From positions 32,001 through 96,000 of IMG/VR virus record IMGVR_UViG_2799112742_000018: a DNA stretch of 64,000 nucleotides; one strand, written 5' to 3'. Below the pieces are notes generated by a model. It saw nothing but the letters and a program-made list of their open reading frames with translations. It was not told where the DNA came from and made no database searches. Position 1 is the stretch's first letter; every line of letters begins with the position of its first letter. The DNA comes from a virus. Its lineage: Duplodnaviria > Caudoviricetes. The position numbers and the translations under genes are program-made. Positions 37,472 to 62,228 of this stretch are shown here, one piece after another.

Positions 37472-39001
37472 ATGCCAGATTATAACAATATACAAACATA
37501 CGGACAGACACCGAAATATATAGTAAGGGGACACAATGATGATCTCCTTGCTATTATGTTCTGTGAGATTAAGATATGGAGAGCTACTAAGGAAGACTGG
37601 TGGACACCTAAAGACTATATTCGTCTTACCGAGGTTGAATCCATAGATATTCAGAAATCATATAAGAAAATTATCCAGAAAGCAACCGTAAAGTTTCCGC
37701 GAGGCACTGTTGTAGGACAAAGAATAAGCGATACAAAAAAAGATGAAAAGGTATCAACAGGAAACAATACGGATGCAAAAGAGGAAACATCTCTGATAGA
37801 ATCCACCAATTATGGTGAGGTTATAGTTCCAGGCTCTGCAACCAATGTAATAAATGCTTTTCGTAAGGATGATGGTATTATTATTGTTGGTAGAAATGGA
37901 GAACAGGAGTTTAAGCCTAAGATGATAAGTACAGGAGATAGGATTGAGATTCGTCTTGCTTATGCTTATTCTGAAGATGAATATACATTGTATAAGAGTG
38001 GAAAGATACAAGGACACCTGGAGTTCTCAGGTTTTGTATCTAAGTGTTCCGTAAGCACACCTCTAATTCTTCAGTGTGAGGATATGATGTCTATTCTAAA
38101 GACCTTTTCATGTCCTGATAATGTGGCTAAGAAGAACTATACCGTTAATGATTATCTTTGTGATGATGGTATATTCAAGCTGTTAAAAGGAACAGGGCTG
38201 AAGATTGACGATGATACAAAAGCAGCAAAGATAAATGTCGGCAGGGTAAATATGACAAATGACCTTGTTGTTGCTGACATTCTTGATGAGTGGTCTAAGT
38301 GTGGCTTGTATGCCTATATGAATGAAAATGATAATTTTAGAACAATCAGAGTAGGCAGAGTTTATACTTCAGGGTTTAATTTTGGTAAGAATGGAAATGT
38401 CGTTCAGGCTCAAGCTGGCGTTCATATTATTCAATTTGATTGGGATGTTGCTAATGATTCTCTTGATGTTGTTGAAAGAGATAAGCGATACCTTGCTATT
38501 GAATGTAGTGGCATGAAGGCGAATGGCACATATATTAAGTTTACTATTAGAAAGGATAAGGATGATAACTGGGATGTTATTAACGAGCGAGATAATATTC
38601 AGGCAAGGACTGGTAGAAAAACAACTGATAAGACTGCCAGTGTTCAAGGTGTAAAGATGCAACACCCACCTAAAATAGATCTTTCAGACTATAATAAAGT
38701 AAGCTATATTTCACCAACAAACCCAATAACAAAAGATAAGCTGATAAGTGAAGGCAAGGCTTATTATGAGAAGTTCAATCCTAATGGTGTATCTGGAAAG
38801 CTTACTATATTTGGTGACAGATATATAAAACCAACGGATACCGTAGGATTATTAGATATGAGACACCCAGAAAGAAATGGCTTCTATTTTGTTTCTGAGG
38901 TTAATACAAAGTTCAGTGTTTCAGGAGGTTTTAGAAGGGAATTAAGCATACCTTATAGACTTGCTAAGTTTCCAAAAGATCAACCGATAACCATTAAGTA
39001 A
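37472..39001 (+). CDS. baseplate hub protein (late control D-like)
   Basis: GDRIEIRL, EFSGFV, LQCEDMM and GVSGKLTIFG; likely start MPDY at 37472. Confidence 0.8.
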   Translation: MPDYNNIQTYGQTPKYIVRGHNDDLLAIMFCEIKIWRATKEDWWTPKDYIRLTEVESIDIQKSYKKIIQKATVKFPRGTVVGQRISDTKKDEKVSTGNNTDAKEETSLIESTNYGEVIVPGSATNVINAFRKDDGIIIVGRNGEQEFKPKMISTGDRIEIRLAYAYSEDEYTLYKSGKIQGHLEFSGFVSKCSVSTPLILQCEDMMSILKTFSCPDNVAKKNYTVNDYLCDDGIFKLLKGTGLKIDDDTKAAKINVGRVNMTNDLVVADILDEWSKCGLYAYMNENDNFRTIRVGRVYTSGFNFGKNGNVVQAQAGVHIIQFDWDVANDSLDVVERDKRYLAIECSGMKANGTYIKFTIRKDKDDNWDVINERDNIQARTGRKTTDKTASVQGVKMQHPPKIDLSDYNKVSYISPTNPITKDKLISEGKAYYEKFNPNGVSGKLTIFGDRYIKPTDTVGLLDMRHPERNGFYFVSEVNTKFSVSGGFRRELSIPYRLAKFPKDQPITIK

Positions 39002-39002
39002 T

Positions 39003-39827
39003 ATGGCAGAAAATGTATTCAAAGATGAGCTTTTGAAATATACAGATGACTTTGCAAAGGCGGTTCAAACAATAGCTCAGAAAAAGTTGTCAAATAGAAA
39101 GGGTGCCCCTATCGGTACTCAAAAAATTGATGGCTATGTTTCATATATACATGATGATCAAAATGATCCTCTTTATGGTACGGTAGATGTTCAGGAATTT
39201 GGTTATGATCCTGTAATAGATTATCCTGAAGGTTTTCATGAGGGTGTTCAAATATCTGCTGTTCCAGGCGATGATAATGGTATGTATATTGTACCAATGC
39301 TATTGTCTGATGTTGTTATTAACACAGAACCTATAAGTCCATTCAGGGAATTTATAGTGGCATATTCAAGGGCTAAGATAATGCACCTTCATAGTCATGA
39401 TAGGGTAACAATAGGCGTTGATGAAACCGCTAAAATGGCAAAACCTGAAGAGGAACTTAGCGATATAAGAATGCTGAAAAATACAGGAAATTCATCAAAT
39501 ACCTTATATGAAAAAGACAAGGTAGTTCATACTGTCGTGAGAAATGGTCAGGTATCTTGTTTTATTTCATTGGATGCTGATGGTACTGTCAGAGTAAGCG
39601 GTAAGAATATTAAAATAGATGGAGATACCGTTAAGCATAATTCTGGTGAGCAGAAAATGGTGTTGGGAGATAAGCTTATAGGTCATTTACAGGATCTTTG
39701 CCAGGCAATCGCTACTATGGCTATATCAACCCCACAAGGAGCTGGTTTTGTAGCTAATCAGGCACCATTTACAAAGATAGCCAGTCAATTAGCTAACGAC
39801 CTGTCTCAGAAGTCATATCTGGAATAA
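39003..39827 (+). CDS. baseplate central spike (gpV/gp45-like)
   Basis: OB-fold-like N-terminus (GTVDV, IVPMLLSDV), beta-rich C-terminus; after the hub gene. Confidence 0.7.
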   Translation: MAENVFKDELLKYTDDFAKAVQTIAQKKLSNRKGAPIGTQKIDGYVSYIHDDQNDPLYGTVDVQEFGYDPVIDYPEGFHEGVQISAVPGDDNGMYIVPMLLSDVVINTEPISPFREFIVAYSRAKIMHLHSHDRVTIGVDETAKMAKPEEELSDIRMLKNTGNSSNTLYEKDKVVHTVVRNGQVSCFISLDADGTVRVSGKNIKIDGDTVKHNSGEQKMVLGDKLIGHLQDLCQAIATMAISTPQGAGFVANQAPFTKIASQLANDLSQKSYLE

Positions 39828-39849
39828 GACTATTAATAATAAAGACAAT

Positions 39850-40716
39850 ATGAAAGATATATTACTCGACATACAAGAACGCGATCTGATATTATCTAAT
39901 CAGAACAAATACATAAAGTTCAGAAGAGCTTCATGGGGTTCTGACGATAATGATTATTGTTATCTAAATATAGAACCTGAAGATAATGAAAATGTTGAGA
40001 ATGTATATACAGATACAGAAGAAAGACCTTCTTATGTGTTTGCAGATTCTTCGGTATATGTTCCGTTAGAGTCATCAAATATATATTTTACAGCAAAATA
40101 TCACCCTTCTGTATTAAAGGTAAAGATTGTTTTTGATGGTGTAGAATATCCAGTCAAGACTAAATTCTGGGATGGGCAGAAACGTGACGTAAAAGCCTGT
40201 CAATTTCCAATAATAAACATTTCTGGTAAATATATGATACAGATAGCGCAAGAAGAAGACGATGAAGCTCTATATGCCTATTTGTACAATGCTGATGAGC
40301 TTGATTTTACATCTAATGAATCTCAGGATCAAGAAGCACAATTGCTTGCTCTTTGTGCCCCAGGACAAAATTATAGATACCCAACAGTCGGGATTGACGT
40401 TTCTAAGTATGTTAATTCAGTACCTTCATTAACTGATTTGGGACAGAAAATTGTCAATGAATTTAGCAATGATGGTAAGGATGTCTATAATGCTGATTTT
40501 GATGCAGATACAGGCAATATAACGGTTGAATTTAATCAAGCAAATACCACACAAGATGTATCAGAAACATTAAATGTTGAGGATTATACTGAATCTGATT
40601 TGATAGATATGGCTGAGAAGATTGCGGTGGAAACAACCGAAATAAACAATAATGGAAATGATTTTCCACAGATAAACGACAATATTTCAAGAATCCAAAA
40701 ATACTTATTGATATGA
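39850..40716 (+). CDS. putative baseplate wedge protein (gp25-like C-terminus)
   Basis: MKDILLD and APGQNYRYPTVGI; position. Confidence 0.55.
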   Translation: MKDILLDIQERDLILSNQNKYIKFRRASWGSDDNDYCYLNIEPEDNENVENVYTDTEERPSYVFADSSVYVPLESSNIYFTAKYHPSVLKVKIVFDGVEYPVKTKFWDGQKRDVKACQFPIINISGKYMIQIAQEEDDEALYAYLYNADELDFTSNESQDQEAQLLALCAPGQNYRYPTVGIDVSKYVNSVPSLTDLGQKIVNEFSNDGKDVYNADFDADTGNITVEFNQANTTQDVSETLNVEDYTESDLIDMAEKIAVETTEINNNGNDFPQINDNISRIQKYLLI

Positions 40717-40943
40717 AACATATAGATCGAAATTCATTGAAGCATTTTACAGTATGTCTTCTGCTTTCATTGATAGGCACTTATGGGGTTGCAATAGCAA
40801 TAGGCGCTTCATTTACCAAAGAATATTATGATAAGAAAAGTTACGGCCATTGGTGCTGGGTTGACCTTTTCTTTGATGGATTGGGATGTGTTGTTGGTTA
40901 TGGCTTACATATTTTGGCAGCATATCTTATTTCTCTTTTGTAG
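40713..40943 (+). CDS. small membrane protein
   Basis: KHF...KEYYD...WCWVDL..DGLG pattern with hydrophobic helices. Confidence 0.65.
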   Translation: MKHIDRNSLKHFTVCLLLSLIGTYGVAIAIGASFTKEYYDKKSYGHWCWVDLFFDGLGCVVGYGLHILAAYLISLL

Positions 40944-40972: not shown

Positions 40973-41002
40973 AGGGCGCAGTTAATAGCTGCGCTCTTTT
41001 TT
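40973..41002 (+). terminator. intrinsic terminator ending the tail operon
   Basis: AGGGCGCAG/CTGCGCTCT stem plus T-run. Confidence 0.7.
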
Positions 41003-41012
41003 ATGTCTTTAA

Positions 41013-41044
41013 TTAGGGCGTTGGACTTGATTGTATTATATTTG
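41013..41044 (+). promoter_or_regulatory. TTAGGGC-N17-TAnnTTTG promoter 1
   Basis: TTAGGGC at 41013 and TATATTTG at 41037. Confidence 0.65.
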
Positions 41045-41073
41045 TACTCAGTATTAATTAAAAACTTAACGGT

Positions 41074-41547
41074 ATGGATTATAGAACAATAATTGAAAAC
41101 GCCAGAAATAAAGGTGTTACGAGTGAAAAGGTGATGTGGTCAAGTATCGCAAGAATAGATGGTGTTTTAGACACTATCAAGGACGAGCATCCAGATTTGT
41201 ATTGGAATTTGCTTAGAGATACACACGAGGAGCTATATGGGCCACATTACGATAAGGAATTTGCTGAGTATGATGTTAATAGTATGCACTGTACGGATAA
41301 GGATGGCAAGCTTCGTCATGGAGCCTTCTGGACTTTAGATGAGATACTGGCAGCAACAAAGAATAAAACCTTCCCAGCAGAGACTACAAATTGGGACAAG
41401 TATGTCGCTTACAATGCCTGCGCAAATGACTTTGGTAAGGCTTTTGAAGATGAGGATGTTTTGGAGATTGCCTATATGTTCTTTTTTGATGATGAGGATG
41501 CCCCTTCTGGAAAAATCTGGAAATACATCAGGGCGATGATGTACTAA
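41074..41547 (+). CDS. hypothetical phage protein of unknown function
   Basis: GPHYDKEFAEYDV, NWDKYVAYN and FFDDEDAPSGKIWKY. Confidence 0.8.
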   Translation: MDYRTIIENARNKGVTSEKVMWSSIARIDGVLDTIKDEHPDLYWNLLRDTHEELYGPHYDKEFAEYDVNSMHCTDKDGKLRHGAFWTLDEILAATKNKTFPAETTNWDKYVAYNACANDFGKAFEDEDVLEIAYMFFFDDEDAPSGKIWKYIRAMMY

Positions 41548-41566
41548 GTGTATTGGTTGCTAACAT

Positions 41567-41593
41567 GCCGCTACCTTATGGTGGCGGCTTTTT
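41567..41593 (+). terminator. intrinsic terminator
   Basis: GCCGCTACC/GGTGGCGGC stem plus T5. Confidence 0.7.
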
Positions 41594-41674
41594 ACATAAA
41601 AGATATTAAAAATACATTGGTAAAGTGATGTTTTTCGATATTTCTTTGTATATTTGCACAATAAAACTTACACA

Positions 41675-42055
41675 ATGAACATAAACAATACATACAAAAA
41701 ATTTTTGCAACTAAAACTGATAACTAAATATGGTATATTTGGTTTGGCTTTTATTTCACTTTCATATTGTGTTTTGACATTCTTAGGGTATTATGTGCCC
41801 TGGATGTTCATAGTATTTTTCAGCTTTGCATTTGTATTGAGAATCATCCTTTCTAAAGCTTTTGGATTATGTTGGATTCATAGAAGCTGTATCTTATATA
41901 ACTATTGTGTTTCTATTTGCATAGTTACAAAACCAGAAACATTATATGCTATGTTAGGTATCGGCAAACAAACAATGGTAGGTATTTTTGCAATTATAGG
42001 TATAATAATATTTAGTCTTGTAATATGGAAAATAATAGCAAAGAAGAGTTGCTAA
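41675..42055 (+). CDS. four-TM membrane protein
   Basis: Hydrophobic segments around FGLCWIHR; TATATTTG box at 41649; likely ATG at 41675. Confidence 0.7.
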   Translation: MNINNTYKKFLQLKLITKYGIFGLAFISLSYCVLTFLGYYVPWMFIVFFSFAFVLRIILSKAFGLCWIHRSCILYNYCVSICIVTKPETLYAMLGIGKQTMVGIFAIIGIIIFSLVIWKIIAKKSC

Positions 42056-42351
42056 TGGAGCTTGCCGTTGTCAATATCATGATAACGGAAAACCCTTGCG
42101 GATTAAAAGAAAGTCTTTTTAATTCCTTAAAGGACGTTATTAAATCCATTATAGGCGCACATTGCATAAAAGGTGCAACGCGTGAACAGGTAGCCAAATA
42201 CTTTCAGCGTGACGTTAGGACATTATCGCATTGGAAGGATAAATACGATGATTTTCCAGAATGCAAGAAGGACTTTGCACACAATAAGACATACAATTGG
42301 ATGGATATTATTGAATGGAAATTAAAGCATAAAGAGATATGGGAATGTTAA
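42025..42351 (+). CDS. helix-turn-helix protein (excisionase/MerR-like)
   Basis: TREQVAKYFQRDVRTLSHW...FP...YNWMDIIEW. Confidence 0.7.
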   Translation: MENNSKEELLMELAVVNIMITENPCGLKESLFNSLKDVIKSIIGAHCIKGATREQVAKYFQRDVRTLSHWKDKYDDFPECKKDFAHNKTYNWMDIIEWKLKHKEIWEC

Positions 42352-42496
42352 TCGTTCCCATATTTTTATTTCCTAAATTCAGGATATTTTTAAGATTACT
42401 AAAAATTTTTTATTGCCTATTTTTTATTTTTATCTTTTATATATAAAAACTGGTGACACAATATCATTTATAATCCATGAAAAACCATTTCCCTTT

Positions 42497-42528
42497 TTAG
42501 GGCACTCTCTCATTCAGTAGTACTTTTG
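42497..42528 (+). promoter_or_regulatory. TTAGGGC-N17-TAnnTTTG promoter 2
   Basis: TTAGGGC at 42497 and TACTTTTG at 42521. Confidence 0.65.
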
Positions 42529-42532
42529 CCTA

Positions 42533-42766
42533 CGATATTCTGTCACAGAGAGATAACTTCCAGGTGAAGCCCAAGGCTTAGAGTTTGCCTCAATCTATAT
42601 ACATAGGGATAAGCAGATCAGCCGAAGATAGGTAGGGGGCATCGTCAGGAGTAAGGTGAACGGTATGTGGCAGTTAGTAGTGTTGCAGGGCATTAAATCA
42701 TCTTAGCTGATGTAACTACATATCAAATAGGGTAGGTAAGAGTGTGCTTTTGCCTACCCATATTTT
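42533..42766 (+). ncRNA. candidate ~230-nt structured small RNA
   Basis: Lies between promoter 2 and a 13-bp terminator hairpin (42730-42759); no long ORF; several stems. Confidence 0.5.
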
Positions 42767-42779
42767 ATCAATTCCAATA

Positions 42780-42811
42780 TTAGGGCATTGTCATTTCATA
42801 AAGTATCTTTG
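42780..42811 (+). promoter_or_regulatory. TTAGGGC-N17-TAnnTTTG promoter 3
   Basis: TTAGGGC at 42780 and TATCTTTG at 42804. Confidence 0.65.
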
Positions 42812-42853
42812 TGGCAATTCCAATATCGGAAGAAACTCTAAAAACTTATCTTT

Positions 42854-43780
42854 ATGGCATTAGAAGTAGAAACTCCAGAGAAAATCTATTGTTGCGGAGG
42901 TGACAATAACAATGCTCTGATGACCGCTATGATGGCCAATGGCGGTGGTGTAAATGGTATGTGGAACAATCCTTGGGCTTACATGATGATGATGTACGTC
43001 ATGAAGAACATGAACGGTAATGGTCAGAATGGTACTGAGGTGGGTGTTGACTACAATAGTCGCGCTCTTGCAACACTTCAGGATACCGTTAATCAGAATC
43101 AGCTCAACAGCACCGTCCTTGCTGCAATTAACAACAATCAGGATGCGGTTCGTGAGCTTGCTGGTATCTTCCACACTGACATCAGTACTATCCAGCAAGG
43201 TATTGGCTTCATCAATTCATCTATCCAGCAAGTTGGTGGTCAGATTGGCCTTGGTATCGAGTCTGTTAAGAATGCTGTTGCTCTTGGTGACAATGCTGTT
43301 ATTCGCCAGCTTTGTGATTGCTGTTGCTCTATGAAGACAATGGTAATGGAAGGCTTCAATGATACTCAGCGTTCTATTCTTGAGGGCTTCAATGGAACAC
43401 AGCGTGAAATCCTGAACGGTACATATCAGGAGCAGCTTGCAACTGAGAGACAGACCAATATTCTTGGTTCTAAGATTGACATGAACCATGCAGCAGAGCA
43501 GTTACAGACATGTCAGTCCGTAAACGCTCTCCAGTCTCAACTTTCTCAGATGTATAGCGGATTGCAGGCAAGCATGACCAATCTTGGTTTCCAGACTGAG
43601 AAGAATACTGCCGCTATCGTTCAGAACAATACCGCACAGACACAGCGTATTCTTGATTCTATTTGTGAGCAGACAACCCAGTCACTTAGGGATAAGCTTG
43701 CTGACAAGGATAGGGAGATCCAGACACAAACCATTCTTGCACAGCTTAAAAGTTCAACGACTGCCGCAGTAGCTGGTTAG
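42854..43780 (+). CDS. Gln/Asn-rich coiled-coil protein with CDCCC motif, function unknown
   Basis: G/N/M-rich N-terminus, NNPWAYMMMM, QLCDCCC and an 11-aa tandem repeat. Confidence 0.85.
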   Translation: MALEVETPEKIYCCGGDNNNALMTAMMANGGGVNGMWNNPWAYMMMMYVMKNMNGNGQNGTEVGVDYNSRALATLQDTVNQNQLNSTVLAAINNNQDAVRELAGIFHTDISTIQQGIGFINSSIQQVGGQIGLGIESVKNAVALGDNAVIRQLCDCCCSMKTMVMEGFNDTQRSILEGFNGTQREILNGTYQEQLATERQTNILGSKIDMNHAAEQLQTCQSVNALQSQLSQMYSGLQASMTNLGFQTEKNTAAIVQNNTAQTQRILDSICEQTTQSLRDKLADKDREIQTQTILAQLKSSTTAAVAG

Positions 43781-43793
43781 TTTTGTCATTACT

Positions 43794-43837
43794 TGAGGGT
43801 TGGTGCGGTATTTTTATCGCATTAAACCCTCATTTTT
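43794..43837 (+). terminator. intrinsic terminator
   Basis: TGAGGGTT...AACCCTCA long hairpin plus T5. Confidence 0.7.
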
Positions 43838-43876
43838 GTAAGTTTTCTGCAAAAATCACACTTTAACGCATAAAAT

Positions 43877-44320
43877 ATGAATTTTAGAGAACTGAAACAA
43901 GGGAATGAGCTGTTTATAATGAACAGAGACACTATGGAGGTAAAGCGTGGAAACATAACACATGTTTCAGCACCACACATAGATACAAAAATAAACATGA
44001 CACCTCAGCAAGTTGTTGATGTCACCGCATTGGTTGATGGAAAAGGAATAACCTATGTTGCACCTGAAGGATCATCAGTAACATATTGTGGATCTCTGGT
44101 TATAAGTTGCTCAAAGGAATATATTCTAAATGAGGCTAAGGCTATAAAGTCTCAATGTGAACAGCTATTATCTTCTATTGATGATACAAGATCCAAACTT
44201 GAAAAGTGCAATAAGACAATCTCAGAACTTGACGATGTGTTTAGAGAAAGACAAGAAAATGATGCCAGACTTTCCAAACTTGAAAGTATGATGCAGTCTT
44301 TATTAGATAAACTTACATAG
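43877..44320 (+). CDS. hypothetical protein with beta-rich N-terminus and coiled-coil C-terminus
   Basis: MNFRELKQG...VSAPH...VVDV; C-terminal heptads. Confidence 0.8.
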   Translation: MNFRELKQGNELFIMNRDTMEVKRGNITHVSAPHIDTKINMTPQQVVDVTALVDGKGITYVAPEGSSVTYCGSLVISCSKEYILNEAKAIKSQCEQLLSSIDDTRSKLEKCNKTISELDDVFRERQENDARLSKLESMMQSLLDKLT

Positions 44321-44326
44321 TCTTAT

Positions 44327-44355
44327 AAGGGTGATAATTTATTTTATCACCCTTT
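44327..44355 (+). terminator. intrinsic terminator
   Basis: AAGGGTGATAA/TTATCACCCTT stem. Confidence 0.65.
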
Positions 44356-44412: not shown

Positions 44413-45336
44413 ATGGCACAGGAAAAACAACTTAGCACCATAACTGAAGGTAAGGGGGCTATACCATTTTCTCCTAAAGTCAATACATCAACAGTGTATG
44501 ATGAAAATGGACAGCCGCTAAATGTTGTTCTTCGATCCGTTGATGGTAAATTCAAAGAGTGTTCTCATTCAATAGGAGAACAAAGAGAAAAAACTGAAGG
44601 ATTGCAAGATACTATCAATGAAGCGGCTCTACACAATGGAGAAGTGCAAGCTGCTGTATTGGTTAATATTGCTTCAGGAACAGGACTTACAGCAGTTAAT
44701 GCTCAACAGGCTTTTGCGGAAATAGCAAGAGAAATATACCCAGTACAGGTAACTATTGCTGAAAGTAATGCTGGAACTTTTGAGATAGGTACTCGTAAAA
44801 CCCCACACATTGTTCTTAGTATTTTAAGAAATGGGACTGATGTGTCATCCTTAGCCGACACCACATCTTCACAAGGCGAAGTTCAATCCGACCATAAGAC
44901 GATTATTGGTTCTGAAATCACAAGTGGAACAACTACATTCCAGATTTCTGTTTCGCAAGGTGGTCAGACAGTCGATGCTCCTAATCAAGTATTCGACTTT
45001 ATGAATTATCGTTATTATGGTGTAATTAATAGCACAACCGAGCCGACAAAGGCACAGGTAAAGACATTGTGTGAAAATGGCACCTTGACTAAGCAATTAA
45101 GTCGTTCTACCAAAATGTCGGCAACTGATCTCGCAGCCAATAAATGCTATGTGTTTGTAGTTCCAAATACAAATATTAATCTCATAGTCAAAAATGCGAA
45201 ATCGGGCAATCCTATAAGTGGATGCACAGTTGATACGGTTACTATCAATCGAGTTAATGGCACTGGTACGGTAAGCTGCAAATATGTAATCGTTCCTTAT
45301 GGTGCTGCCGCATGGACATTTGAGATAACTAATTAA
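44413..45336 (+). CDS. putative virion accessory protein with Ig-like C-terminal part
   Basis: Thr/Ser-rich beta region resembling 50654-51319; late-motif variant at 44383. Confidence 0.65.
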   Translation: MAQEKQLSTITEGKGAIPFSPKVNTSTVYDENGQPLNVVLRSVDGKFKECSHSIGEQREKTEGLQDTINEAALHNGEVQAAVLVNIASGTGLTAVNAQQAFAEIAREIYPVQVTIAESNAGTFEIGTRKTPHIVLSILRNGTDVSSLADTTSSQGEVQSDHKTIIGSEITSGTTTFQISVSQGGQTVDAPNQVFDFMNYRYYGVINSTTEPTKAQVKTLCENGTLTKQLSRSTKMSATDLAANKCYVFVVPNTNINLIVKNAKSGNPISGCTVDTVTINRVNGTGTVSCKYVIVPYGAAAWTFEITN

Positions 45337-45347
45337 ATTAGACGGTT

Positions 45348-45689
45348 ATGGCAACAAAGAAAGAACAAGTGGCCTTTGAGTTAGAAAATCCTGGTGGATT
45401 TGTTACTCAAGCAAGTCAAATAGGCATGGATGGTAAACCCATCAATCAGCAAATAACTGGTAGAGACACTAAGGTTAATTATAATTCTGGCAGTATTGAG
45501 AGTAAATTAAATGCCATGATTGATTGTATGCAGTTAATGATACAAGGTGTTGTGTTTCATTCTGGCACCCCTTTTGTGTCACCAGCAGAACTTAATGATC
45601 ATCTCGAATTGTTGAGAATATCAAGCAGTTCAACTACAGCTAAGTGCGGTCAAGCAATTTGTGGTCAAGCAATATGTGGAACTAATTAA
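45348..45689 (+). CDS. hypothetical protein with C-terminal CGQAI repeats
   Basis: Ends in TAKCGQAICGQAICGTN. Confidence 0.7.
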   Translation: MATKKEQVAFELENPGGFVTQASQIGMDGKPINQQITGRDTKVNYNSGSIESKLNAMIDCMQLMIQGVVFHSGTPFVSPAELNDHLELLRISSSSTTAKCGQAICGQAICGTN

Positions 45690-45702
45690 AAAATAAGAAG
45701 AT

Positions 45703-47235
45703 ATGGCAAATATTCCAAAATTAAACTATTCGTTTACCGACAATCAAACAACGATTTCGGCTGAACACTTGAATGCTTTTGTTAATAGGATTAACTTGTT
45801 GATTGATGCGGTAGGTGAACAACCTGTTCCTACACAGACGGTTGCAACACCTACTATTTCTATAAGTGGCACAACCGCAACAATCAGTTGCTCTACAAGC
45901 GGTGCAACTATATATTACACAACTAATGGTAATACACCAACAACAAGTAGCACTCAATATAGTAGCCCTATTACATTGTCTGGTGCCTGCACAATTAAAG
46001 CTATCGCGGTTAAGAGTGGAATGAGCAATTCATCTGTTGCAAGTCAAAGCTACACACCATCCGTTGTGGCTGCGCCTGTGATAAGTATTAGCGGTAATTC
46101 TGCAACTATAACTTGCGCGACATCGGGTGCAACTATACATTACACATTAGATGGAACTACACCGACAGCAAGCAGCGCTCAATACAGCAGTCCTATCACG
46201 TTATCGGATGCTTGCACAATCAAAGCTATTGCGATGAAGAGTGGCATGACAAATTCATCTGTTGTAAGCCAGTCTTATTCGCCACCAGTAGCTCAGTATA
46301 TCACATTTACAGATTCGGCAGTCAAGGCTATTCTCGTTGCGGATGCAACCATTAATACGAGTGGTGACAGCGAAATTTCCTTTGAAGAGGCAGCAGCAGC
46401 AGAAGCATTGCCATCAGCGTTGAAGAACAATACAACTATCACTTCATTCAATGAGTTGGAAAACTTCACAGGCTTGACCTACATTTCCTCTGAACAATTT
46501 AAGGGAGACAGCAATCTTGCAAGTATCAAATTCCCTTCTACTATAACGGATATTAGAGGCTTGGCATTTACGGATTGCACAGAACTTGGTAGTATCACAT
46601 TACCTCCTAATCTAACGACATTAGGTAGCAATGTTTTCAAGAATTGCACCAAAGTCAACTTCTCATCTATACCAAACGGAGTGACAGAAATAGGTACTGC
46701 CACATTCTATGGTTGTACTGCTTTGGCACTATCCTCACTGCCGACAGGCTTGACGAGCATTGGTAGCCAAGCGTTCTATAATTGTGGAAATATCACTTGT
46801 AACACATTGCCAAGTACACTGACTTCAATCGCAGGTTCGGCATTCTATAATTGCACCAAAGTAACATTCAGCTCATTACCATCGGGAATTACGTCAATCG
46901 CCAATCTTACATTCTATGGTTGCAAACTTATCACTATATCCGCTATACCAAGCGGTGTAACATCAATTGGTGATAATGCTTTCAGAGGTTGCACAGGCTT
47001 GACTACTATGGAAATACCATCCACAGTTACGTCATTAGGAACTAAGGTATTTAATGGTTGCACTAATCTTGCTAAGGTTAAGATGCCAGCAACACCGCCT
47101 ACAATAGTAGATGATACTTTCCCATCTACAACGGTATTTTACGTTCCTGATGCAACTGCTCAAGCAGCTTATGCAGCAGCAAGTGTATGGAGTGGCATAG
47201 AATCAAGTAGAATTAAATTGTGGTCTGAATGGTAA
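45703..47235 (+). CDS. Fn3/chitobiase-C-like tandem domains plus BspA-type leucine-rich repeats
   Basis: Two copies of ATI(Y/H)YTxxGxTPT..S..YSSPITL and many LPxxLTxIGxxAFYxC repeats. Confidence 0.88.
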   Translation: MANIPKLNYSFTDNQTTISAEHLNAFVNRINLLIDAVGEQPVPTQTVATPTISISGTTATISCSTSGATIYYTTNGNTPTTSSTQYSSPITLSGACTIKAIAVKSGMSNSSVASQSYTPSVVAAPVISISGNSATITCATSGATIHYTLDGTTPTASSAQYSSPITLSDACTIKAIAMKSGMTNSSVVSQSYSPPVAQYITFTDSAVKAILVADATINTSGDSEISFEEAAAAEALPSALKNNTTITSFNELENFTGLTYISSEQFKGDSNLASIKFPSTITDIRGLAFTDCTELGSITLPPNLTTLGSNVFKNCTKVNFSSIPNGVTEIGTATFYGCTALALSSLPTGLTSIGSQAFYNCGNITCNTLPSTLTSIAGSAFYNCTKVTFSSLPSGITSIANLTFYGCKLITISAIPSGVTSIGDNAFRGCTGLTTMEIPSTVTSLGTKVFNGCTNLAKVKMPATPPTIVDDTFPSTTVFYVPDATAQAAYAAASVWSGIESSRIKLWSEW

Positions 47236-47254
47236 TTCCTAAAGATAGATAATT

Positions 47255-49075
47255 ATGGCAGACAATATTTATAGAAGTGATGGCACACCTTTACAGTTAC
47301 CCCAAGTCAATGTCAATCCGATATTGACTGAGGGTACTCCTATCGCCTCTATTAATGGTAAGGTGTTGTACGCCCCAAGTGACGGTGGAGGTGGTGAGCC
47401 TGTAGTGGTTGAAACTGTATATACTCTTGCAGATATTGCCGTAGAAGGCTCTAAGACAGGTTACTACGTACATACTGATGGAAGAATACTATCAGCAGCT
47501 AACTGTATTGTAACTAAACCATTCCTACTTAAAGTTGGTGATGTTATCACCTGTTCAACTGGAGGTACAGGTATTTCCGTTTTGTCTATGTCTAACAGCA
47601 TTACAGGCAATAGAGTAGATTCAGTCGTAGCTGCAACAACATCATTCTTAGGCACAATCGAAACAGAAGGGTATTATGTATTTAGTGGACGCATTAATAG
47701 ACAAGATGATACAAATCTTGTAGTTGAGGTGCATCGCTATACCACAGACAATCCTTTGGAAGAGCTTGAAGAAAGGGTAGATGTACTCGAACATAAAGTT
47801 AATGGAATATCTGGTGCATCATCAGCCCTTTCTCTCGGTGTCCTCAATTACATGGATGAGATACCGTCCTATTGGTTTGGTTCTGGGTATGGCAATGGAA
47901 TGTGGTACGATACCTATTTGGAGAATAAGATTCATTCTGTACCGCAAGGCAAGCATTTCATTTTCATCACAGACGTACATTACACCTTGAACAAGAAACA
48001 TTCAGCAGCACTCCTCGACTATATTAGGCGAAGAATGAACATCAAGACTATAATTCATGGTGGTGATGTAGAGAACGAGGCAACAACTAAAGAAGCGGCT
48101 GCAAAACAATGGCTTGATTTCAATGAGGATTATGTGTTCAGAATTGGTTCTGACTTCAAGCAAGTATGCGGAGACCATGACCACAATGCAAGTTCAGGAC
48201 ATGAGCCTCTTCCTTATGAGTTCGTACAGGAAGCGATGAACGGATATAATATTAATGAGCTTCATTACGATACCTTGTATGATGAAAGGATTGCCACTTA
48301 TGGTTGGTCAGCAAGTGAAATGGCCGAGTACGAAGCATGGAAGAAAATGCACTACTATTATGACGATACCACTATCTCTACAAGGTTCATAGTTCTACAT
48401 ACTGGTTGGCCAGGCGATGTAGGATTAATATACACAAAGATAGGTGAGGGCGCTCAGTCTGAAACAGGTGCGCCATACTTGCAAATGGATTTCTTGTATC
48501 ATGCACTTATGACTGTACCAAATGGATATAATGTTGTGGTGTGTGGACATAATGTAATAGGTAATAAATATTACAGGGTAGATGAGCAAACTATGTATAA
48601 CCTAACTGAGCCTGTCTGGAAGGGTTCATGGCAACAGGTTTCAAAAATGCTCAGAGCATTTATCCATAAGACTGTTTCACCATCTATAACATATCGAGAT
48701 TGGGATGGAACTGCCACCAAAACGAAGGTATATGATTACAGCGAAGCTCCAACCGCTAACATCGTATTCTGTATAGGTGGCGATGTGCATTGGGATATTA
48801 TGGCTAAAGCACAGACATCATTAGAAACATTGGCAAATGTAACTAATGGAAGTTCAATCAGTAAGACTGAGGATATTGCTCATATTGTTGTAATGACTGA
48901 CGGAGCAGATCGAGGCTACAAGAGCTATCCAAATGGAGATGCTATATGCCCATCCGCAACAGCAGGAACATTGGATGAACAGGCATTTGACATAGTTACA
49001 CTTAATGATAAGGGTATATTCTTTACAAGAATAGGCTGTGGTTCTGACAGAAGTATTTTATTCTCTAATAGTTAA
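47255..49075 (+). CDS. calcineurin-like metallophosphoesterase domain protein
   Basis: FIFITDVH, HGGD, GDHDHN, VCGH and GGDVH; C-terminal AFDIV...TRIGCG. Confidence 0.75.
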   Translation: MADNIYRSDGTPLQLPQVNVNPILTEGTPIASINGKVLYAPSDGGGGEPVVVETVYTLADIAVEGSKTGYYVHTDGRILSAANCIVTKPFLLKVGDVITCSTGGTGISVLSMSNSITGNRVDSVVAATTSFLGTIETEGYYVFSGRINRQDDTNLVVEVHRYTTDNPLEELEERVDVLEHKVNGISGASSALSLGVLNYMDEIPSYWFGSGYGNGMWYDTYLENKIHSVPQGKHFIFITDVHYTLNKKHSAALLDYIRRRMNIKTIIHGGDVENEATTKEAAAKQWLDFNEDYVFRIGSDFKQVCGDHDHNASSGHEPLPYEFVQEAMNGYNINELHYDTLYDERIATYGWSASEMAEYEAWKKMHYYYDDTTISTRFIVLHTGWPGDVGLIYTKIGEGAQSETGAPYLQMDFLYHALMTVPNGYNVVVCGHNVIGNKYYRVDEQTMYNLTEPVWKGSWQQVSKMLRAFIHKTVSPSITYRDWDGTATKTKVYDYSEAPTANIVFCIGGDVHWDIMAKAQTSLETLANVTNGSSISKTEDIAHIVVMTDGADRGYKSYPNGDAICPSATAGTLDEQAFDIVTLNDKGIFFTRIGCGSDRSILFSNS

Positions 49076-49271
49076 TATGACACACATAGACAAGAACAGC
49101 ATAAAGTACTTCTCTGTATGCCTTACAGGACAAATTTGCACAATAATCTAAATAATAAGGAGGTGTCTGATGACATCTCTTTATTGTTTTATATTGAATA
49201 CAAAGAAAATGAAACACAAATACTTGTTGAGCAGCAATTAAACAAGTGTCTATTATTTAGAAAACAGCAAT

Positions 49272-49490
49272 ATGAAAGAGTTTTTCAAATCAATGATGGG
49301 TAGGGGAGGATACAGCTCCAAACGTTTCTGCGGTTTTATGATCGTAGGAATGCTCTGTTTTGCCTATGTGTATTGCACCATTAAGCAATGTCAGATGCTT
49401 GAGGCTACTTATGGTTTCATGGCACTTGCTGGCACCTTACTTGGCATTGAAACAATATTTACTAAGGGTAGTTCAAAGAATGGGAAATAA
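49272..49490 (+). CDS. putative holin
   Basis: 72 aa, SSKRFCG followed by two TM helices; late motif at 49250. Confidence 0.6.
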   Translation: MKEFFKSMMGRGGYSSKRFCGFMIVGMLCFAYVYCTIKQCQMLEATYGFMALAGTLLGIETIFTKGSSKNGK

Positions 49491-49971
49491 GGAACGGATA
49501 ATATGGTGGCTAATATTGGTACTATTGTTAATATCAACAATAGGAGTAATTACACGTCACCTTATGCAACCTAAAAATGTCAGCGTAACTTACGATACAA
49601 TAACCGTATATGACACAATTATTTACCCTATCCCATGTGATAGCATAATCAAAAGATACGAAACTGTCAAGCTTCCAGTAACAAATACTGAAGTGAGAAC
49701 AGATACCATATATAAAATAGACTCTGTAGAAGTCTCAGTTCCAATCTCACAAAAAACATATTCGGATAGCACTTACAAAGCTGTCATCTCAGGATTCCAT
49801 ATATCCCTTGACAGCATAATTGTAAGGAACAGGGAAATAACCAAAACAATTACTGAAACCAGATACAAGCCTACGAGATGGGGGCTTGGCATATCTGCTG
49901 GGTATGATCCCATTAACAATAGCGTGGGAATAACACTCGGTGTTCAGTACAATATATTACCACTAAAGTAA
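49480..49971 (+). CDS. DUF6808-like membrane-anchored protein, spanin-like candidate
   Basis: N-terminal TM, DTI repeats, YSDSTYKAVISG and RWGLGISAGY; ATG at 49480. Confidence 0.65.
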   Translation: MGNKERIIWWLILVLLLISTIGVITRHLMQPKNVSVTYDTITVYDTIIYPIPCDSIIKRYETVKLPVTNTEVRTDTIYKIDSVEVSVPISQKTYSDSTYKAVISGFHISLDSIIVRNREITKTITETRYKPTRWGLGISAGYDPINNSVGITLGVQYNILPLK

Positions 49972-61368: not shown

Positions 61369-61404
61369 AATGATTTATTTTTTGTTAAATTTTAATATTA
61401 TATA

Positions 61405-61830
61405 CAGACCGCCCTTTATCCTCCAGAAGGAAAAGAAATTCCTTCAAAAGAGAATATGAAAAAGGAATGTATAACCTTTTTCAGGCCCAAAACATCAAAT
61501 ATTTTATTCCTCCTACGTTGCTGGGGTTTACAAGTCCCTCTGGAGTTACCTGTTGTTAGCGGTGGAACAGAGCAGGATAGTAAGCAACGGATGTTTTTAG
61601 AGTCAAGGAGCTTTTTGTATCGGAGAGACTCCCACGGTAGCTACTGATGGAACCAATTTTTCAATAAGCCGTTCTTTTGAAGTGAACGTAAGGCTATGCC
61701 TTGTATAAGACTTGCACGTCCCTAACGTCTGGCTTGATACAGTTTTGCCAGGAACCACTGTCGATGTTTGGATTACCACACCTTACCAGGTTGCCATGTC
61801 CCTTACGGACTACTATCCTAATGGCATCGG
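61405..61830 (-). ncRNA. candidate large structured non-coding RNA
   Basis: GC-richer non-coding tract with many nested stems and a long-range 9-bp pairing, downstream of a promoter/attenuator. Confidence 0.4.
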
Positions 61831-61884
61831 ATATGCTCTTTTTCTGTAGAAGAAGGATTTGATTAGAACAATAAGACCTGTAGA

Positions 61885-62014
61885 TAAAAATAGGAACAAC
61901 CAAAAGCCTAAAGTAGCACGCAGCTTTCAGTTGTTCCCTGTATCTCGTAGAAAAAACGATTCAAATATGTTTTGCTTATCAATGTGCTACTAAATCTAAG
62001 CGATGACAAAGGTA
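61885..62014 (-). promoter_or_regulatory. promoter plus leader attenuator
   Basis: TACCTTTG at 62007-62014; terminator stem GGAACAAC/GTTGTTCC competes with AGTAGCAC/GTGCTACT. Confidence 0.6.
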
Positions 62015-62228
62015 CGTACTTTATTTTAAGCTACCAAATAAAATTTCAAAAATCTTTCATTTAGGGTGTTAATTTAACCTTTATTCACAATACAAATATT
62101 AAATATATAATAATGTACATACGTGAAACATCTCAGCATTGTAGAGATTAAAAAGTGTTGTAACTTGCACAGACAGAGGGGTAAAATAATACGTAAAGAA
62201 AATTTAACATAAAAAAATCTATTAAAAA

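Follow-up and report, generated by a model that had tools for sequence, protein, structure and literature searches.

A widespread coiled-coil gene cassette of Bacteroidota phages, joined to clade-specific control parts in a gut provirus

The accessory proteins known from phage lysis include the two-component spanins Rz/Rz1, the unimolecular spanin T1 gp11, the cationic outer-membrane disruptor phiKT gp28 and the T4 antiholin RI/RIII, and fibrous phage proteins with downstream chaperones are represented by T4 fibritin (wac), T4 gp57A and the tail-fibre assembly proteins. The morons of lambdoid phages are reportedly promoter-gene-terminator units inside late operons. The locus compared here with these systems is a block at positions 40973-44355 of a 64,000-nucleotide (nt) stretch of phage DNA (the window), which makes up bases 32001-96000 of the IMG/VR record IMGVR_UViG_2799112742_000018. 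The record is catalogued as a provirus of 114,064 base pairs (bp), with a completeness rating of 100% and two tyrosine recombinases, and the sequencing runs containing the stretch were by their labels mostly bovine gut metagenomes. The block encodes a coiled-coil protein (CC), a protein of 147 amino acids (aa; w147) and a protein of the family DUF7841, together called the triad, and in addition a membrane protein (TM4), a helix-turn-helix (HTH) protein (HTH_A) and a structured RNA. It is best explained as the version, in this phage, of an accessory operon that is mobile among Bacteroidota phages, joined to control parts that are specific to one clade.

Searches were made with locally built profiles, and the loci examined comprised eleven encoding contigs, four annotated phage records and 80 IMG/VR loci of the at least 539 positive ones. 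The loci examined were collapsed into 41 lineages with CC proteins less than 90% identical, and their neighbouring genes were clustered. A scan of IMG/VR with the single CC sequence found nothing, but the alignment-based scan succeeded and detected CC relatives in at least 539 contigs. CC had 171 homologues and no Pfam family. At the approximately 100 loci, CC was present in 98, w147 in 97 and DUF7841 in 86. The commonest gene order, found at 63 loci, was CC, then after 29-97 nt w147, and after a further -3 to +12 nt DUF7841. The DUF7841 gene thus normally lies directly 3' of w147; in this phage it is instead upstream of CC, where it has been moved under a second copy of the CC promoter. The triad was carried by crAss-like phages, by temperate phages of about 40 kb and by phages of 60-170 kb with contractile-tail genes (sheath or T4 gp19-type tube). 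With at least 539 IMG/VR contigs, 848 DUF7841 clusters and the crAss-like phages among its carriers, it ranks among the most frequent gene sets without an explanation in Bacteroidales phages of the gut and rumen. The block gave no nucleotide-level match among GenBank phages, and a full-text literature search for the names DUF7841 and DUF6808 returned no paper.

The first-pass annotation, made from the window alone, had regarded the block as one self-contained system inserted in the virion region. The genes do recur together in other genomes, but in layers: instead of a single system there is a widespread mobile triad (CC-w147-DUF7841) to which clade-specific regulatory parts have been added. 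The pair of the four-transmembrane (TM) protein TM4 and HTH_A was found at just 7-9 of the approximately 100 loci (TM4 at seven, HTH_A at nine), all of them close relatives, and was inverted in locus L018; both the pair and the RNA were limited to one rumen/gut clade. The roles first suggested for the pair, a membrane sensor and a regulator of the three units, are conjectural. In other lineages the position of HTH_A was occupied by a different, non-homologous small HTH gene. A small HTH gene lay directly upstream of CC in about 19 lineages, the genes belonging to two unrelated families. HTH_A and HTH_B, the latter encoded next to the RNA in some relatives, were related as distant paralogues (hhalign probability 76% over 77 columns), and the DnaA-C-like clusters c5 and c13 were related to each other (hhalign 97%).

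Comparison with the relatives also showed that the extra DNA of this region is not the block but the fibre genes at 44413-49075. These four genes (307 aa, 113 aa, 510 aa with a leucine-rich repeat (LRR), and 606 aa) are additional in comparison with L019, L017, L003, L016 and L018, and the segment looks like a swapped-in fibre module. In the relatives w147 is followed by tm72, DUF6808 and fibre genes, with a GH108 endolysin gene sometimes placed between w147 and tm72, and in this phage 4.7 kb of fibre genes lie between the block and tm72/DUF6808. Homing-endonuclease genes of the HNH/NUMOD type were seen beside CC in L003 (7961-8632, minus strand), L016 (4692-5339, minus strand) and L017 (5140-5922, plus strand), at two insertion positions. 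The closest relative, L019, has a 474-aa reverse transcriptase (RVT_1; 148-1572) three genes upstream of the block, which may be part of a diversity-generating retroelement of the fibre region.

The gene content proposed from the window alone was recovered in full (DUF7841, the overlapping four-TM/HTH pair, a non-coding unit of about 200 nt, CC and w147), and the claim that terminators bound the block was borne out by six terminator-type hairpins within 40973-44355. The features are given below, where terminators and promoters are sequence-level predictions and TM counts, the four of TM4 included, were derived from hydropathy alone.

40713-40943, + strand: tm76, a 76-aa two-TM protein with two hydrophobic segments, just outside the block; weak phrog_26616 match
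40973-40997, + strand: terminator T0, left border of the block; 11-bp stem followed by a T run, free energy (dG) -16.3
41013-41044, + strand: promoter P1 ahead of the DUF7841 gene; TTAGGGC-N17-TATATTTG
41074-41547, + strand: DUF7841 protein, 157 aa, acidic (pI 4.7); Pfam PF25223
41567-41588, + strand: terminator T1; dG -18.8
41649-41656, + strand: own -7 box of TM4, TATATTTG, a promoter-like site
41675-42055, + strand: TM4, AT-rich membrane protein with about four TM segments; ATG start, TTG at 41654 possible; GC 0.28
42025-42351, + strand: HTH_A, 108-aa HTH protein; weak HTH_23 and phrog_668 matches; 31-nt overlap with the TM4 gene
about 42333-42367, + strand: terminator T2, overlapping the HTH_A stop codon; 15-bp stem, dG -18.5, followed by a T run
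42497-42528, + strand: promoter P2, for the RNA; TTAGGGC-N17-TACTTTTG
42536-42735, + strand: structured non-coding RNA of about 200 nt, recognised by conservation and covariation
42730-42759, + strand: terminator T3, end of the RNA unit; 13-bp stem, dG -22
42780-42811, + strand: promoter P3, for CC; TTAGGGC-N17-TATCTTTG
42818-42831, + strand: 5' hairpin at the predicted start of the CC mRNA (uucc-AAUAUC-ggaa), with a conserved loop
42854-43780, + strand: CC, 308-aa coiled-coil protein with a CDCCC motif; all-helical; family alignment available
43794-43832, + strand: CC/w147 hairpin plus T run; dG -23.4; probable attenuator or 3' stabiliser
43877-44320, + strand: w147, 147-aa protein; phrog_28898; SH3/KOW-like barrel plus two long helices
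44327-44354, + strand: terminator T4, right border of the block; dG -15.4
49272-49971, + strand: tm72 (72-aa membrane protein) and DUF6808 protein, recognised by tblastn as the relatives' genes; PF20647 E 4.4e-21; CTATTATT at 49250

Homologues of tm76, 74-77% identical, occupy the same position ahead of DUF7841 in L019 and L017. The region 42352-42853 includes no open reading frame (ORF) of 40 aa or more, and contains a promoter-like site, the conserved RNA and a terminator.

The plus strand of the window carries genes for the portal, the protease, a capsid candidate, two sheath-like proteins, the tape measure and the baseplate hub, then the block, and then the LRR and collar fibre genes. Promoter-like sites in the window have the Bacteroidota -7 form TAnnTTTG. 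The motif CTATTATT is present in 14 copies in the window against 4.5 expected, a number of at least 14 being reached by none of 100 shuffles, and lies mostly 19-25 nt upstream of late-gene start codons; it is a candidate for a late-promoter or initiation element of the phage. Its sites span 9081-60642 (n = 14; for instance 20272, 29632, 36346, 49250, 56104 and 59698), ahead of portal, sheath-2, baseplate and fibre genes, often directly 3' of a hairpin, and in relatives the motif is found also ahead of the tm72 and GH108 endolysin genes. As the first-pass annotation had noticed, this motif is lacking from the plus strand of the block, the single copy there being on the minus strand within coding sequence (42031-42038).

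A promoter form of its own is instead shared within the block by the DUF7841, RNA and CC units, which agrees with the earlier suggestion of three co-regulated units. When both strands of the 114,064-bp genome were scanned, TTAGGGC-N17-TAnnTTTG was found at 41013, 42497 and 42780 and at no other site. The sister phages L019 and L017 have TT(T/C/A)GGGC-N17-TAnnTTTG at the same three places, and because the element was kept there while the spacers diverged, it is under selection. Individually, P1 reads TTTGGGC-N17-TATATTTG in both sisters, P2 has TTCGGGC, TTTTGGC or ATAGGGC-N17-TA(A/C)TTTTG in the relatives, and P3 is TTAGGGC-N17-TATTTTTG in L019. The RNA promoter of the more distant relatives, with TTTTGGC, includes the canonical -33 TTTG, and the TTAGGGC element can be read as a variant of this -33 box, extended by a conserved GGC(A). 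More widely, an exact TAnnTTTG box was present 50-60 nt upstream of CC in 14 of the 41 lineages. A sigma-54 reading of the TTGGCAC-like promoter elements was rejected, as there is no conserved GC at -12. The sequence CAATTCCAATAT occurs twice around P3, at 42770-42781 just ahead of the -33 element and at 42816-42827 as the 5' hairpin, and relatives keep the second copy only.

The small RNA suggested in the first-pass annotation proved to be conserved and structured. The region 42536-42735 had 74-85% nucleotide identity in L019, L017, L016, L018, L003 and L004, the flanking proteins being 42-79% identical, and its covariance model scored 201-216 bits in all seven loci. RNAalifold produced a multi-stem fold, in which five of the seven pairs of the outer, closing stem were changed on both sides. 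This covariation was greater than in 500 of 500 shuffles and in all slid controls, and gives, with six sequences, moderate support for the fold. The only small ORF in the RNA was not conserved. Rfam gave no match to the RNA at gathering thresholds over the whole window, and at E values up to 1 over 42300-42900 the sole match was a terminator-shaped one, the L20 leader at 42300-42375. Judged from alignment and covariation, this is a real, previously uncatalogued conserved structured RNA. Kinship with the leader RNA at 61369-62038 was rejected, as the covariance model found no second copy in the window.

In L003, L016, L018 and L004 the RNA runs directly into the HTH_B ORF and thus forms a leader of about 200 nt. 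The ORF is absent from the window, L019 and L017, where a terminator is present instead, and the terminator sequence of the window differs from that of L019 and L017. Since HTH_B is missing here and the RNA ends at a terminator, the RNA could in this phage only be a free short RNA or a decoy transcript. It might also be non-working, as the leftover leader of a lost HTH_B gene that has been retained because the loss was recent. Such an origin fits both the HTH_B ORF directly 3' of the RNA in four of the seven RNA loci and the confinement of the RNA to one clade, since pattern scans of IMG/VR (two) and of metagenomes (one) gave only chance matches, none of which obtained a score from the covariance model. 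It is nevertheless regarded as somewhat unlikely: the three loci without HTH_B have RNAs that are about 85% identical, the outer stem shows compensatory changes, the promoter is conserved and the terminators have come to differ independently; this retention without HTH_B points to selection acting on the RNA as a free molecule. An 11-bp direct repeat, CTTTTGCCTAC, is present in this phage only, at 42523-42533 where the RNA unit starts and at 42747-42757 within its terminator; it may be a scar of the removal of HTH_B.

Several signals suggest that CC is highly expressed, as the first-pass annotation had supposed. Its codon signature is typical of an abundant protein: GC3 and NAY-C were 0.45 and 0.46, in comparison to 0.48 and 0.63 in the major capsid candidate, 0.45 and 0.55 in the sheath, and 0.24-0.30 in the neighbours of CC. 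Just 3' of the -7 box, a 5' hairpin with a conserved hexaloop RAYRKY and a freely varying stem was found in 14 of the 41 lineages, against eight of 604 upstream regions of other genes, and a stable hairpin filled the spacer between CC and w147 in 26 of 28 lineages. Two cattle-gut RNA libraries included contigs over DUF7841 (41173-41518) and over CC (1040 nt, 42766-43802, from T3 to the CC/w147 hairpin); these show no level, strand or ends, such libraries can contain DNA, and the contigs are a weak hint of expression of the two genes. The cDNA RNA-seq libraries X17 and X19 did not cover 42514-42764, where the small RNA is located, nor the virion genes on either side (39000-40716 and most of 44413-46500), and were uninformative either way.

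Across lineages the recurrent neighbours of the triad are lysis genes, a context that was absent from the speculative roles first considered for the block, namely superinfection exclusion, a lysis-lysogeny or dormancy decision and a protective matrix. Within five genes upstream or eight downstream of CC, a lysis-type gene was present in 28 of the 41 lineages. Endolysin genes were found in 21 of them and belonged to six unrelated types (GH19, GH24, Amidase_2, Amidase_3, M15 and GH108), holin-like genes in 16, and a protein combining a lipobox with a C-terminal TM segment (cluster c3), which has the layout of a unimolecular spanin, in nine. Also the annotated crAss-like and lemur-gut records have holin genes a few genes from the triad. 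The c3 protein is 130-180 aa long and is encoded 3' of holin and endolysin in the nine lineages (for instance L070, 9896-10417). In the clade of this phage a similar place is taken by DUF6808 (here 49594-49971), which has an N-terminal TM segment, and the hhalign link between DUF6808 and c3 spans just 17 columns. TM4 and tm76 both have TM segments, and TM4 had no profile relation to the holin-like clusters c4 and c15 (hhalign).

The reading tentatively favoured, with a confidence somewhat short of even, is that the block is a self-regulated accessory operon with a host-directed role at the end of infection and is not a part of the virion. It is preferred because the cassette travels with many types of lysis genes, because CC is conserved from end to end across phages with different sets of tail genes, because the promoters are of host type and accompanied by dedicated regulators, and because the late motif is absent although neighbouring lysis-type genes carry it.

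A number of observations weigh against such a role. The link to lysis is one of neighbourhood only, no homologue gives the triad a function, and the last tail-fibre genes of tailed phages also adjoin lysis genes, so the same neighbourhood would fit a fibre. The endolysin of this provirus was not found with GH108, GH19, GH24, Amidase_2, Amidase_3 and M15 queries or with PHROG scans of the late region and neighbouring genes; its relatives have GH108 adjoining tm72. The triad of L009 to L011 is flanked by head genes on one side and tail genes on the other. Several lineages already have c3 or DUF6808 beside the triad, and an outer-membrane role of the triad is therefore not needed in them. Signal peptides, lipoboxes and canonical TM segments are all lacking from the core proteins, which could therefore act on the envelope only if let out through holin holes. 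A mean Kyte-Doolittle hydropathy of at least 1.6 over 19 residues (KD19), within the first 90 residues, was reached by none of the 89 CC family members (0.87 in the CC of the window), so that an N-terminal TM helix of the i-spanin type was present in none, and by sequence reading no lipobox was seen in w147, DUF7841, CC or the cysteine-rich protein p131 of some lineages. Control by HTH_A is purely conjectural, the monomer model of CC is poor, and high abundance together with a variable number of 11-residue repeats is what would be expected of a fibre or decoration protein.

The first-pass annotation had proposed a test against known structural families, and none of the block genes maps clearly to one. 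The CC proteins have a conserved N-terminal EK-x-Y-C, a short aromatic, Met-rich stretch and Gly/Asn repeats, followed by Q/N-rich heptads, a DCCC cluster (CDCCC here) and one to four 11-residue repeats. The monomer model was all-helical with a pLDDT of 42 and unusable for fold search. The best match of CC was phrog_16490, with function unassigned. The tail of CC occurs in two forms, either Thr-rich or Cys-rich, the latter with a following gene for the Cys-rich beta protein p131; the association between Cys-rich tail and p131 was nearly complete, with counts of 15, 1, 2 and 20 over 38 lineages, which are not independent. The CC of the window has a Thr/Ala tail and the p131 gene is absent from this genome, while the sisters have the Cys-rich/p131 form; p131 had no Pfam or PHROG match. 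For w147 the AF2 model (pLDDT 88) consisted of an SH3/KOW-like beta-barrel and two long helices. The barrel resembled domain I of EF-P/eIF5A (Z 7.5), a generic fold that gives no functional lead, and the sole clear structural matches of w147 were uncharacterised crAss-like phage proteins. The DUF7841 protein matched PF25223 over residues 47-152 (53.5 bits, cut-off 25.2; E 3.4e-14), and the 848 clusters of its family at 50% identity were all 91-256 aa with no fusions. HTH_A scored 18.2 bits against HTH_23 (cut-off 24.6) and E 9.8e-5 against phrog_668, and the values for HTH_B were 23 bits against HTH_17 (cut-off 27) and E 6.5e-9 against phrog_66.

Sequence searches of the PDB with DUF7841, w147 and HTH_A found nothing and with CC weak similarity to coronavirus HR1 only, and the ESM Atlas contributed viral hypothetical clusters only. 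Positions 58-147 of the CC family profile matched HR1 of many coronavirus spikes (E 2e-4 to 0.02). There is a likeness to the S2 part of these class I fusion proteins in that a hydrophobic Gly-rich segment precedes the heptads of CC, as the fusion peptide precedes HR1, but CC has no membrane anchor and no ectodomain, and the match is weak and compositional (Q/N/A/L/S heptads). On this comparison it is no evidence of common descent, and it probably explains why relatives are labelled as spike protein or glycoprotein in databases.

The same protein features could belong to a virion fibre or decoration, CC being the trimeric shaft, the optional p131 a distal knob attached through the Cys-rich tail, and w147 and DUF7841 chaperones of fibre assembly. 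The gene positions would suit this, since CC has baseplate and fibre genes around it in this phage, separates head genes from tail genes in L009 to L011 and follows the tail genes in the phages of about 40 kb, and assembly genes are usually encoded just downstream of tail fibres, as are w147 and DUF7841. So would the codon bias resembling that of capsid and sheath genes, the all-helical CC with its variable repeat number, the coupling of p131 to the Cys-rich tail, a weak match of CC residues 209-281 to the 'tail protein' phrog_23659 (E 3.8e-4), and the labels 'viral fiber' or 'spike' given to crAss records by their depositors. A fibre is nonetheless considered unlikely. CC is kept at full length, with the end that would dock to the particle included, across crAss-like phages, temperate phages of about 40 kb and phages that carry sheath or tube genes. 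Its gene has a host-type promoter to itself and in many lineages a dedicated small HTH gene, and lacks the late motif found ahead of virion genes in this phage. In crAss-like cr124_1 and in csAssE-Sib the genes around it are small and non-structural, with an antirepressor and a repressor alongside. Furthermore, CC is without a receptor-binding domain, and longer, fused versions of CC or DUF7841 were looked for and not found, the latter being weak evidence.

The arrangement of the units raises also the possibility of a moron-type cargo, that is, highly expressed cytoplasmic proteins produced by the prophage or upon its induction, which would alter the lysogen (superinfection exclusion, defence or counter-defence) or act outside after lysis. 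A moron sits within a late operon but has a promoter and a terminator to itself, and at the sequence level both are present here (P1 to P3, the TM4 promoter and the six hairpins), each unit having a host-type promoter and an intrinsic terminator in a block that has no late motif. The layout of regulator, promoter, short terminated RNA, cargo and lysis genes is like that of lambdoid cargo between Q-PR'-tR' and S-R-Rz, and the phage is a complete provirus with integrases. The base composition of CC is unlike that of its neighbours, secretion signals are lacking, the triad adjoins lysis genes and in some lineages an integrase, and the RNA-library contigs lie over DUF7841 and CC. Lysogenic expression is, however, not readable from these contigs, which give no level or strand and may be DNA. 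The triad is equally conserved in crAss-like phages, in whose contexts no integrase was shown, and no match to known defence families was found by name (PADLOC was not searched). A cargo of this kind is thus given a low probability, below that of a fibre.

Under the favoured reading of a host-directed role at the end of infection, the three TTnGGGC-N17-TAnnTTTG promoters would be read by host RNA polymerase, probably aided or gated by the small HTH protein encoded just upstream; in this phage that protein would be HTH_A, and in others HTH_B or a DnaA-C-like protein. The hairpins would render the CC mRNA stable and largely monocistronic, giving much CC and, by read-through, less w147. CC would form a coiled coil, rich in Q/N and probably trimeric, whose aromatic, Gly-rich end could self-associate or bind membranes, and w147 and DUF7841 would be its partners or chaperones. 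The products could then act on the host cell in concert with the lysis genes, whether at the envelope or once they have been freed by lysis.

A bolder form of this proposal, which is speculative and improbable to the same degree as the moron-type cargo, is that the triad is a hitherto unrecognised fourth kind of lysis-module component in Bacteroidota phages. It would be a soluble, massively produced coiled-coil effector, its aromatic Gly-rich membrane-active end held by two partners, that reaches the envelope once the holin opens the inner membrane and then breaks the outer membrane or remodels the released material. The dose would be set by the small HTH proteins, the special -33 element, the 5' hairpin with the conserved loop and, in this clade, the structured leader RNA. 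To our knowledge little is established about the passage of these phages through the outer membrane and capsule of Bacteroidota, and a lysis-linked, highly expressed cassette is a concrete candidate for it. The present copy offers several handles: the promoters of three units match, HTH_A is a candidate for their regulator, the structured RNA is new, and CC is enclosed by conserved hairpins on its 5' and 3' sides. The forms with and without p131 constitute a natural genetic comparison.

In comparison to the known lysis cassettes, the triad is similar in adjoining holin and endolysin genes in most lineages and in moving between phage types that share a host group. CC resembles Rz in its coiled-coil helices with conserved cysteines, and phiKT gp28 offers a precedent for a cytoplasmic protein that reaches the envelope via holin holes. 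Unlike the described lysis accessory proteins, the core consists of three soluble proteins without an N-terminal TM segment, a lipobox or a cationic amphipathic peptide, CC is apparently made in capsid-like amounts from its own promoter and with its own regulator, and the spanin-like c3 or DUF6808 is often encoded alongside.

With proteins of the T4 fibritin type CC shares Q/N-rich heptads of the trimeric type, length variation driven by repeats, small genes directly downstream and a position in the fibre region. It differs from them in having no sequence or fold match, in its conservation across different tail gene sets, in its host-type promoter without the late motif and in its lack of a receptor-binding domain.

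The lambdoid morons are similar in that each unit has its own promoter and terminator and is embedded between late genes of a provirus, with the composition of CC being distinct; the difference is that the cassette has several genes in conserved order, is present also in crAss-like phages and includes regulator genes and RNA elements of its own. The lambda region Q-PR'-6S RNA-tR' is like the block in combining a small regulator gene, a constitutive-type promoter, a terminated transcript of about 200 nt and downstream genes that border lysis genes. In the block, however, HTH_A is not Q-like, the RNA fold is conserved with covariation, and CC has its own promoter after the terminator.

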